From Escherichia coli (GTDB lineage: Bacteria; Pseudomonadota; Gammaproteobacteria; Enterobacterales; Enterobacteriaceae), in the NCBI RefSeq assembly GCF_044324875.1, contig NZ_CP172185.1: a stretch of DNA of 64,000 nt. The stretch is one strand, 5' to 3'. Positions 51,001 through 54,000 of the stretch are shown here, in pieces; the stretch's first letter is position 1; every line of letters starts with the position of its first letter. A program made the position numbers.

Positions 51001-54000
51001 TAACGCCTGACGACTGAACATCCTGTCATGGTCAACAGTGGAAGGATGATGTCGTGCTTATCTTATTAGGTTACCTGGTTGTTCTCGGTACAGTTTTCGG
51101 CGGTTATTTGATGACCGGTGGAAGCCTTGGAGCACTCTATCAACCCGCTGAACTGGTGATTATTGCCGGTGCAGGGATTGGGTCGTTTATCGTCGGCAAT
51201 AATGGCAAAGCGATTAAAGGCACGCTGAAGGCGCTGCCGTTGCTGTTTCGTCGCTCCAAATACACCAAAGCAATGTATATGGATCTGCTGGCTCTGCTTT
51301 ATCGGTTGATGGCGAAATCGCGGCAGATGGGGATGTTTTCGCTGGAACGTGATATTGAAAATCCCCGTGAGAGCGAGATCTTCGCCAGCTACCCACGCAT
51401 CCTTGCGGATAGCGTCATGCTTGATTTTATCGTCGATTATCTGCGTCTGATTATCAGCGGTCACATGAACACCTTCGAAATCGAAGCCCTGATGGATGAA
51501 GAGATTGAGACGCACGAAAGCGAAGCAGAAGTCCCGGCGAACAGTCTGGCGCTGGTCGGGGACTCACTTCCGGCGTTTGGTATTGTCGCGGCTGTGATGG
51601 GGGTCGTTCACGCGTTAGGTTCAGCCGATCGTCCTGCCGCCGAGCTGGGGGCGCTTATCGCACATGCGATGGTGGGGACTTTCCTCGGTATTTTATTGGC
51701 TTACGGATTTATTTCCCCATTAGCGAGTGTTTTACGTCAGAAAAGCGCCGAAACCAGCAAAATGATGCAGTGCGTCAAAGTCACACTGCTTTCTAATCTG
51801 AACGGTTACGCACCGCCTATCGCCGTTGAGTTTGGTCGCAAAACGCTCTATTCCAGCGAACGTCCGTCGTTTATTGAACTGGAAGAGCATGTGCGTGCGG
51901 TGAAAAATCCGCAACAACAGACGACAACCGAGGAAGCATGAAGAATCAAGCGCATCCGATTATTGTCGTCAAACGACGCAAAGCCAAAAGCCACGGGGCA
52001 GCACATGGATCGTGGAAGATTGCTTATGCCGACTTTATGACCGCGATGATGGCCTTTTTTCTGGTGATGTGGCTAATCTCCATCTCCAGCCCAAAAGAGC
52101 TGATTCAGATTGCGGAGTACTTCCGGACTCCACTGGCGACTGCGGTTACGGGCGGCGATCGCATTTCTAATAGTGAAAGCCCAATTCCCGGTGGGGGTGA
52201 TGATTACACCCAAAGCCAGGGGGAAGTGAATAAGCAGCCGAACATCGAAGAGCTGAAAAAACGCATGGAGCAAAGTCGATTGCGGAAATTGCGTGGCGAT
52301 CTCGACCAGTTGATAGAGTCCGATCCGAAACTGCGGGCGTTACGTCCACATCTCAAAATCGATCTGGTCCAGGAAGGTCTACGTATTCAGATCATCGATA
52401 GCCAGAATCGCCCGATGTTTAGAACCGGCAGTGCCGATGTGGAACCCTATATGCGCGACATTCTGCGCGCCATCGCGCCTGTACTGAACGGTATTCCCAA
52501 CCGTATTAGCCTTTCAGGTCATACCGATGATTTTCCCTACGCCAGCGGTGAGAAAGGTTACAGCAACTGGGAGCTTTCTGCCGATCGGGCCAATGCATCC
52601 CGCCGCGAACTGATGGTCGGCGGGTTGGATAGCGGCAAAGTGTTACGTGTCGTCGGCATGGCGGCAACGATGCGCTTAAGCGATCGCGGACCTGATGATG
52701 CCGTCAACCGTCGCATCAGCCTGCTGGTACTGAACAAACAAGCCGAACAGGCCATTTTGCATGAAAACGCCGAAAGCCAGAATGAGCCAGTAAGCGCCCT
52801 GGAAAAACCTGAGGTTGCACCACAGGTCAGTGTTCCCACAATGCCATCAGCCGAACCGAGGTGACAGCGTGAGCATGGATATAAGCGATTTTTATCAGAC
52901 ATTTTTTGATGAAGCGGACGAACTGTTGGCTGATATGGAGCAGCATCTGCTGGTTTTGCAGCCGGAAGCGCCAGATGCCGAACAATTGAATGCCATCTTT
53001 CGGGCTGCCCACTCGATCAAAGGAGGGGCAGGAACCTTTGGCTTCAGCATTTTGCAGGAAACCACGCATCTGATGGAAAACCTGCTCGACGAAGCCAGAC
53101 GAGGTGAGATGCAACTCAACACCGACATTATCAATCTGTTTTTGGAAACGAAGGACATCATGCAAGAACAGCTCGACGCTTATAAACAGTCGCAAGAGCC
53201 GGATGCCGCCAGCTTCGATTATATCTGCCAGGCCTTGCGTCAACTGGCATTAGAAGCGAAAGGCGAAACGCCATCCGCAGTGACCCGATTAAGTGTGGTT
53301 GCCAAAAGTGAACCGCAAGATGAGCAGAGCCGCAATCAGTCGCCGCGACGAATTATCCTTTCGCGCCTGAAGGCCGGGGAAGTCGACCTGCTGGAAGAAG
53401 AGCTGGGGCATCTGACAACGTTAACCGACGTGGTGAAAGGGGCGGATTCTCTCTCGGCAATATTAACGGGCGACATCGCCGAAGATGACATCACAGCGGT
53501 ACTCTGTTTTGTGATTGAAGCCGATCAGATTACCTTTGAAACAGTAGAAGTCTCGCCCAAAATATCCCCCCCACCAGTGCTTAAACTGGCAGCTGAACAA
53601 GCGCCAACCGGTCGCGTGGAGCGGGAAAAAACGACGCGCAGCAGTGAATCCACCAGCATCCGTGTAGCGGTAGAAAAGGTTGATCAATTAATTAACCTCG
53701 TCGGCGAGCTGGTCATCACCCAGTCCATGCTTGCCCAGCGTTCCAGCGAACTGGACCCGGTTAATCATGGTGATTTGATTACCAGCATGGGGCAGTTACA
53801 ACGTAACGCTCGTGATTTGCAGGAATCAGTGATGTCGATTCGCATGATGCCGATGGAATATGTCTTTAGCCGTTATCCCCGGCTGGTGCGTGATCTGGCG
53901 GGAAAACTCGGCAAGCAGGTAGAACTGACGCTGGTGGGCAGTTCTACTGAACTCGACAAGAGCCTGATAGAACGCATTATCGACCCGCTGACCCACCTGG

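Follow-up and report, generated by a model that had tools for sequence, protein, structure and literature searches.

At which codon does translation of CheA's short form begin in Escherichia coli, and what in the surrounding sequence marks that codon as a start? The short form, CheA-S, has been known since 1980–1991. We took up the question in a continuous stretch of 64,000 nt of E. coli DNA (contig NZ_CP172185.1 of assembly GCF_044324875.1), hereafter called the window, to which all coordinates refer unless a K-12 position is named. An earlier note, made from the sequence of the window, had proposed that CheA-S starts at the ATG for Met98, which it placed at 53160 inside cheA. Below, this codon is examined by alignment with the K-12 reference, against published mutants, and by comparison of cheA among Enterobacterales. 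The start codon of the long form, CheA-L, is referred to as start(L) and that of CheA-S as start(S).

Results

Between positions 49987 and 57163, the + strand of the window encodes FlhD, FlhC, MotA, MotB, CheA, CheW and Tar, and thus comprises the flhDC-motAB-cheAW-tar region. An 801-nt query over the motB/cheA junction found a match of 95–100% identity in 5378 of 5426 complete E. coli genomes; judged by these matches, the window is E. coli chromosome. The motB gene occupies 51938–52864 and ends in a TGA stop at 52862–52864. The coding sequence of CheA-L follows at 52869–54833 (+ strand; 654 aa plus stop), with GTG as start(L), and in the best-matching E. coli genome (99.9% identity) RefSeq cheA runs over the bases equivalent to 52869 through 54833. 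The numbering used in the literature and the RefSeq annotation both put the beginning of cheA at 52869, in keeping with the earlier note. Upstream of start(L) lies a Shine-Dalgarno sequence, GAGGTGA (52858–52864, + strand; −7.2 kcal/mol), which overlaps the motB stop codon. A mechanical listing of ORFs gave a longer frame of 672 aa, which the earlier note had dismissed as starting too far upstream. We agree: this call starts at TTG 52815 and overlaps motB by 50 nt. Since the listing begins each frame at the first possible start after the preceding in-frame stop, it took TTG 52815, and we rejected the call as an over-extension whose additional 5′ segment (52815–52868, + strand), overlapping the end of motB, is spurious.

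The ATG at 53160–53162 (+ strand) lies 291 nt, or 97 codons, 3′ of GTG 52869 and in the same frame, so that it forms codon 98 of cheA. A coding sequence starting here (53160–54833, + strand) is nested in cheA, shares its frame and stop, and encodes 557 aa plus stop. In the K-12 MG1655 RefSeq record, cheA (b1888) is annotated with two coding sequences, 1973360..1975324 (654 aa) and 1973360..1975033 (557 aa). When window positions 53100–53200 were aligned with the reverse complement of K-12 positions 1974993–1975093, all 101 bases were identical, and window position 53160 fell on K-12 position 1975033, the base with which the shorter cheA coding sequence (NP_416402.2) begins. The internal start of the window and that of K-12 therefore coincide in base, frame and stop. 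The two full-length proteins are identical at 648 of 654 residues, and the six differences (K-12 residue first: V61I, S156N, P200T, T234P, N259S and K484E) all lie away from start(S). On alignment, Met98 is thus neither absent nor out of frame.

The assignment made in the earlier note also agrees with published work. CheA has been described as having two alternative start codons that give rise to CheAL and CheAS; CheA 98-655 was used as CheA-S, and the M98I form as a CheA-L lacking CheA-S expression (PMC2644175). In another study CheA-S was stated to be "initiated at codon ATG-98", and M98L eliminated it (PMC7696710). A CheA species of ~69 kDa that is lost upon substitution of Met98 has been reported for K-12 derivatives (PMC2644175; PMC7696710). 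With in-frame position, alignment, the conservation described below and these mutants in agreement, ATG 53160 is almost certainly start(S), the second in-frame translation start of E. coli cheA. The start of CheA-S at codon 98 is already known and already part of the K-12 reference annotation.

What this second start removes can be read from the domain architecture. Pfam searches of the window CheA returned Hpt (8-100), CheY-binding (161-223), H-kinase_dim (261-324), HATPase_c (372-508) and CheW (514-640), all five above the curated cut-offs and in the canonical P1–P5 order, and PDB matches included the P1 domain of E. coli and Salmonella CheA as well as full-length CheA. As deduced from these boundaries, CheA-S, which is without residues 1–97, has lost nearly all of the Hpt (P1) domain but still contains P2 to P5. 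The codon for His48 (CAC, 53010–53012, + strand), the 48th from GTG 52869 and located within the peptide AAHSIKGG, belongs to CheA-L only; His48 is the phospho-accepting residue of CheA. The published description is of a CheA-S devoid of a phosphorylation site, whose N-terminus is bound by CheZ (PMC3676780). Much of CheZ, a phosphatase, localises to the receptor array through CheA-S, although CheA-S is not essential for chemotaxis (PMC7696710).

Four nucleotides before ATG98 we found a Shine-Dalgarno-like motif, AAGGA (53151–53155, + strand), made up of the Lys95 codon AAG and the GA of the Asp96 codon. Its duplex energy, computed against the 3′ end of 16S rRNA, is −5.4 kcal/mol. The motif is moderate and its 4-nt spacer is short. 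Among the 95 candidate start codons of cheA (ATG, GTG or TTG in all frames), Met98 is surpassed in the strength of its upstream motif by 11. For this reason the sequence of a single genome would not by itself single out Met98, and it is comparative evidence that sets the codon apart. An in-frame ATG is in itself unremarkable in a gene that has 18 of them.

For the comparison, cheA loci of 80 Enterobacterales were assembled, one genome per species, ranging from Citrobacter to Photorhabdus/Xenorhabdus and from 64 to 96% protein identity. At codon 1, 78 of the 82 sequences considered (the window, locus L001 and the 80 loci) have GTG as start(L), and the arrangement of GAGGTGA, 4 nt and GTG is kept in most loci. 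ATG is invariant at codon 98 throughout the 81 sequences formed by the window and the 80 loci, among them those of Citrobacter, Enterobacter, Erwinia, Pantoea, Serratia, Yersinia, Pectobacterium and Photorhabdus. The loci had been fetched with six back-translated peptide patterns, assumed degenerate at synonymous sites, one of which (ETKDIMQE) includes Met98 itself. Loci that carry ETKDIMQD or EAKDIMQQ, and were retrieved through other patterns, also have ATG98, and the invariance is therefore not an artefact of retrieval. Within the species, 5372 of 5378 E. coli genomes share exactly the same 60 nt at 53131–53190; for comparison, most E. coli genomes differ by 1–5% over the 801-nt query.

The position of Met98 was also compared among representative P1 domains drawn from 1.8 billion library proteins. 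All nine matches with at least 80% identity have Met. Leu occupies the position in 13 of 19 matches at 60–80% identity, 43 of 47 at 50–60% and 26 of 31 at 40–50%, the remainder below 80% being Ile, Val and occasionally Met. Between 46 and 69% identity, nearly every homologue has one of Leu, Ile and Val here. Since Leu is accepted by the fold, Met98 is not a structural requirement, and its fixation in enteric-type proteins is better explained by use of the codon as a start.

The distribution of the Shine-Dalgarno-like motif is quite different from that of the ATG. AAGGA occurs in five of the 81 sequences, namely the window, the E. coli representative (L002), Cedecea neteri (L022), an Izhakiella locus (L043) and an Erwinia MAG (L061). 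In the other 76 it is missing because Lys95 is encoded by AAA, the AAG codon being confined to the five. Most Enterobacterales carry GAAACNAAAGAYATTATG in place of the AAGGA context, and in loci of the AAA type the anti-Shine-Dalgarno sequence pairs best with a GGA 12–14 nt upstream (−3.3 kcal/mol). The motif is thus nearly E. coli-specific and seems to have been added in the lineage of E. coli. The earlier note had proposed inspection for a Shine-Dalgarno sequence upstream of 53160: one is present, but it is moderate, closely spaced and absent from most relatives. As AAGGA is lacking in 76 sequences that keep ATG98, it is not what has been conserved in the signal; as far as the alignment indicates, that is the U-rich and A-rich context.

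That context stands out at synonymous sites. Synonymous entropy was assessed over 424 columns with a conserved amino acid and degenerate codons, in 406 windows of nine codons. The eight lowest of the 406 all overlap codons 84–99, with observed/expected entropies of 0.32–0.44 against a median of 0.82; the nine-codon segment at the 5′ end of cheA itself gave 0.47, above the minimum at codons 84–99. A single codon is used throughout in only two of the 424 columns, F91 (TTT, 81/81) and E93 (GAA, 81/81). F91 lies outside the ETKDIMQE search pattern, and E93 is its first residue. At L92 the rare codon TTG is found in 69 of 81 sequences, compared with a gene-wide TTG usage of 15%. As in the window, the succession TTT-TTG/CTG-GAA-ACN-AAR-GAY-ATY upstream of ATG98 is kept in the other Enterobacterales with very low synonymous variation.

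The zone of strongest constraint, codons 88–101 (53130–53171, + strand), which we interpret as the region where translation initiates for start(S), extends from about −30 to +11 relative to ATG98. A 30S binding site is of roughly this length. The 18 nt before ATG98 average 70% A+U, against 45% for the gene, and predicted accessibility from −18 to +6 has its median at the 92nd percentile within each cheA (88th percentile in the window). These comparative signatures support, and would fit, a conserved RNA-level signal just upstream of ATG98. Two other readings of the same region were considered and discarded. Antisense ORFs on the minus strand (52827–53243 and 52895–53161) overlap the site, but were ruled out as an explanation of the constraint because it is confined to ~14 codons rather than following the length of the ORFs. 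A programmed −1 frameshift at G-UUU-UUG (53138–53144) was set aside as well, since a G precedes UUU and the sequence is not an X_XXY_YYZ heptamer. Read by eye, the −1 frame at this place stops after ~15 codons, and nothing speaks in favor of such a shift.

A hairpin around AUG98 is a further candidate feature. In the minimum-free-energy fold of 53125–53195, a hypothetical 9-bp stem joins a 5′ arm at 53136–53144 (+ strand; CTGTTTTTG, in RNA CUGUUUUUG) to a 3′ arm at 53163–53171 (+ strand; CAAGAACAG), leaving GAAACGAAGGACAUCAUG, with the AAGGA motif and AUG98, as an 18-nt loop. The z-score of the fold is only −1.1 and the alifold energy of the stem only −1.8. The arms are pairable in 95.9% of cells across 62 distinct sequences. 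In the same 62 sequences, no pair was changed on both sides and column shuffles did equally well, so that covariation lends the stem no support. The stem escaped an inverted-repeat search with a seed of 6, because one DNA mismatch, a G-U pair in RNA, splits the seed, and an Rfam search gave no match at start(S). The 9-bp hairpin may form and is compatible with the data, but it is unproven.

Discussion

In the current analysis, we located start(S) of E. coli cheA to the base and characterized the sequence around it. In the explanation that we favor, the motA-motB-cheA-cheW mRNA carries in start(S) a second, in-frame start of translation, with initiation at GTG 52869 yielding CheA-L (654 aa) and initiation at ATG 53160 yielding CheA-S (557 aa). 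Probably 30S subunits bind directly to the A/U-rich, relatively accessible stretch from about −30 to +11; in E. coli the lineage-specific AAGGA 4 nt upstream would assist this binding, and the 9-bp stem, if formed, may present the AAGGA motif and the AUG in its loop. A stronger proposal can also be formulated, in which codons 88–101 (53130–53171) constitute a conserved RNA element, for instance a U-rich tract together with a stem exposing AUG98 in its loop, that drives Shine-Dalgarno-independent internal initiation and sets or regulates the ratio of CheA-L to CheA-S, AAGGA having been acquired secondarily in E. coli through a synonymous change from AAA to AAG at Lys95. We put this forward as a speculative idea and regard it, in this full form, as quite unlikely.

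Ribosomes might alternatively reach ATG98 from upstream. CheA-S would then be made mainly by ribosomes derived from start(L), through re-initiation or coupling, or under the control of inverted repeats, rather than by free 30S subunits that recognize AAGGA. This possibility concerns the mechanism only, and leaves the start codon where the preferred explanation has it. Several observations speak for it: 76 of the 81 sequences keep ATG98 without having AAGGA, the conserved CTG TTT TTG GAA (codons 90–93) lies 15–24 nt upstream, beyond the normal position of a Shine-Dalgarno sequence, and the two arms of the putative stem can pair in nearly all cells (95.9%). Moreover, Kofoid and Parkinson reportedly described, in 1991, inverted repeats flanking both cheA starts. 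Against it, there is no in-frame stop upstream, so classical termination-reinitiation cannot apply on the wild-type mRNA, the stem is without covariation, and the span of constraint, from about −30 to +11, is what an ordinary 30S footprint would be expected to leave. On balance we consider delivery of ribosomes from upstream, or control by inverted repeats, unlikely.

Explanations that dispense with initiation at codon 98 fare far worse. One of them takes Met98 for a mere internal methionine that is retained because the P1 helix bundle needs it to fold, with no initiation there in the strain of the window. It could draw on the high conservation of the surrounding peptide as protein and on the fact that, with 18 in-frame ATGs in cheA, finding one that has a moderate motif is no rarity. 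Yet the local DNA is identical to that of K-12, in which the short product is annotated and is removed by M98I or M98L, distant homologues have Leu, Ile or Val at the position, and the peak of synonymous constraint lies upstream of the codon, where selection at the protein level cannot explain it; we regard this as very improbable. The same holds for a start of the short product at another internal codon. Met81 (ATG 53109) would be the foremost candidate, as it directly follows GAGGTGAG, has an upstream duplex energy of −7.2 kcal/mol, stronger than that of Met98, and is kept in 79 of 81 sequences. However, its GAGGT core stops just 3 nt short of the ATG, the motif depends on codons 76–80, which vary freely at synonymous sites (observed entropy near expected), substitutions of codon 98 alone abolish CheA-S (PMC2644175; PMC7696710), and the K-12 annotation uses codon 98. 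We therefore give a start at Met81 hardly any chance.

Finally, the short form could come from a separate transcript that begins inside cheA, or from proteolysis of CheA-L. Nothing was found in favor of either. Scans detected no sigma-70-like site in 52500–53400 and no sigma-28-like site between motB and start(S); the sigma-28 scan found a perfect TAAAGTTT-N11-GCCGATAA before tar, but at the thresholds used it also missed the motA promoter and is thus not exhaustive. An internal transcript is unsupported, and the single-codon mutants in the literature exclude proteolysis, since in them substitution of M98 removes the product (PMC2644175; PMC7696710). Together, these two origins retain a next to negligible probability, and initiation at ATG98 remains the reading that we adopt.

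Nested starts of this kind are not peculiar to cheA. In E. coli, infB (IF2 alpha/beta), clpB and mrcB likewise produce full-length and N-terminally truncated isoforms from a second in-frame start, and their in-frame internal starts have been documented (bioRxiv 10.1101/520783; PMC11005335). The cheA case differs in function, since here truncation removes the phospho-accepting domain, so that the remaining kinase core cannot accept phosphate on a P1 of its own.

As a discovery, start(S) matters little, CheA-S being in the K-12 reference annotation. Placing a nested start at its exact base from raw sequence serves rather as a positive control. There are also consequences for annotation: mechanical ORF calls over-extend cheA, as in the 672-aa frame from TTG 52815, and PGAP-style annotation of most E. 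coli genomes gives the long CheA product only, unlike that of K-12 MG1655. The mildly new points are only the footprint of synonymous constraint and the lineage-specific motif. ATG98 is invariant among the Enterobacterales loci, Leu takes the place of Met outside the enteric-type proteins, synonymous variation has a sharp minimum just before ATG98, and the Shine-Dalgarno-like motif is restricted to a lineage. Taken together, these observations show that an internal start of the documented kind leaves a clear evolutionary footprint even without a canonical motif, which makes cheA modestly informative for work on internal initiation.

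Results

The start of CheA-L, the 654-aa product of cheA, lies in the arrangement GAGGTGA-N4-GTG-AGC-ATG (window 52858-52877, plus strand), which is conserved across most of the cheA loci compared and offers two candidate starts 6 nt apart, the GTG at codon 1 and an ATG at codon 3. In Photorhabdus and Xenorhabdus (loci L076-L079) codon 1 is GTA (at about position 1501), so that initiation must occur there at the ATG equivalent to Met3. Within the gene, another in-frame ATG, the codon for Met81 (53109-53111, plus strand), is preceded by GAGGTGAG at 53101-53108. By duplex energy, the Shine-Dalgarno-like match before Met81 (-7.2 kcal/mol) is stronger than that of the CheA-S start at codon 98 (ATG 53160; -5.4 kcal/mol). 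The gap between this match and the Met81 ATG is only about 3 nt, and no synonymous constraint was found at codons 76-80, before Met81, in the cheA of other species. The Met81 ATG is probably not used as an initiation site.

In E. coli strain E1 (locus L082, NZ_CP195951.1, 3170-4182), cheA is broken after approximately codon 90, a few codons 5′ of the CheA-S start. An IS1A element is located at the break, the remainder of cheA-cheW is inverted, and the cheA remnant is annotated as 'Hpt domain-containing protein'.

In the window, downstream of cheA, a scan found a perfect sigma-28 consensus promoter, TAAAGTTT-N11-GCCGATAA, 5′ of tar (55444-55470, plus strand). A match to the Rfam family of the C0465 sRNA (55377-55454, minus strand, 100 bits) overlaps the beginning of this promoter on the opposite strand, in the cheW-tar intergenic region. 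Rfam scans also identified two features elsewhere in the window that are expected for this part of the E. coli chromosome: the DsrA sRNA (606-692, plus strand, 102.5 bits) and three clustered tRNA genes (36849-37148, plus strand).

The mechanical ORF call, made from the first possible start after the preceding in-frame stop, gives flhD a GTG start and 119 aa (49987-50346). In strain E1 the RefSeq flhD measures 351 nt and encodes 116 aa, a length implying that the gene begins at the ATG located three codons 3′ of that GTG; like the 672-aa cheA call, this ORF is over-extended. A second cheA product, of 557 aa, is present only in the curated K-12 MG1655 record (L083), whereas the PGAP annotation of the near-identical E. 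coli 118UI (L001) holds the long cheA CDS alone, leaving CheA-S invisible there.
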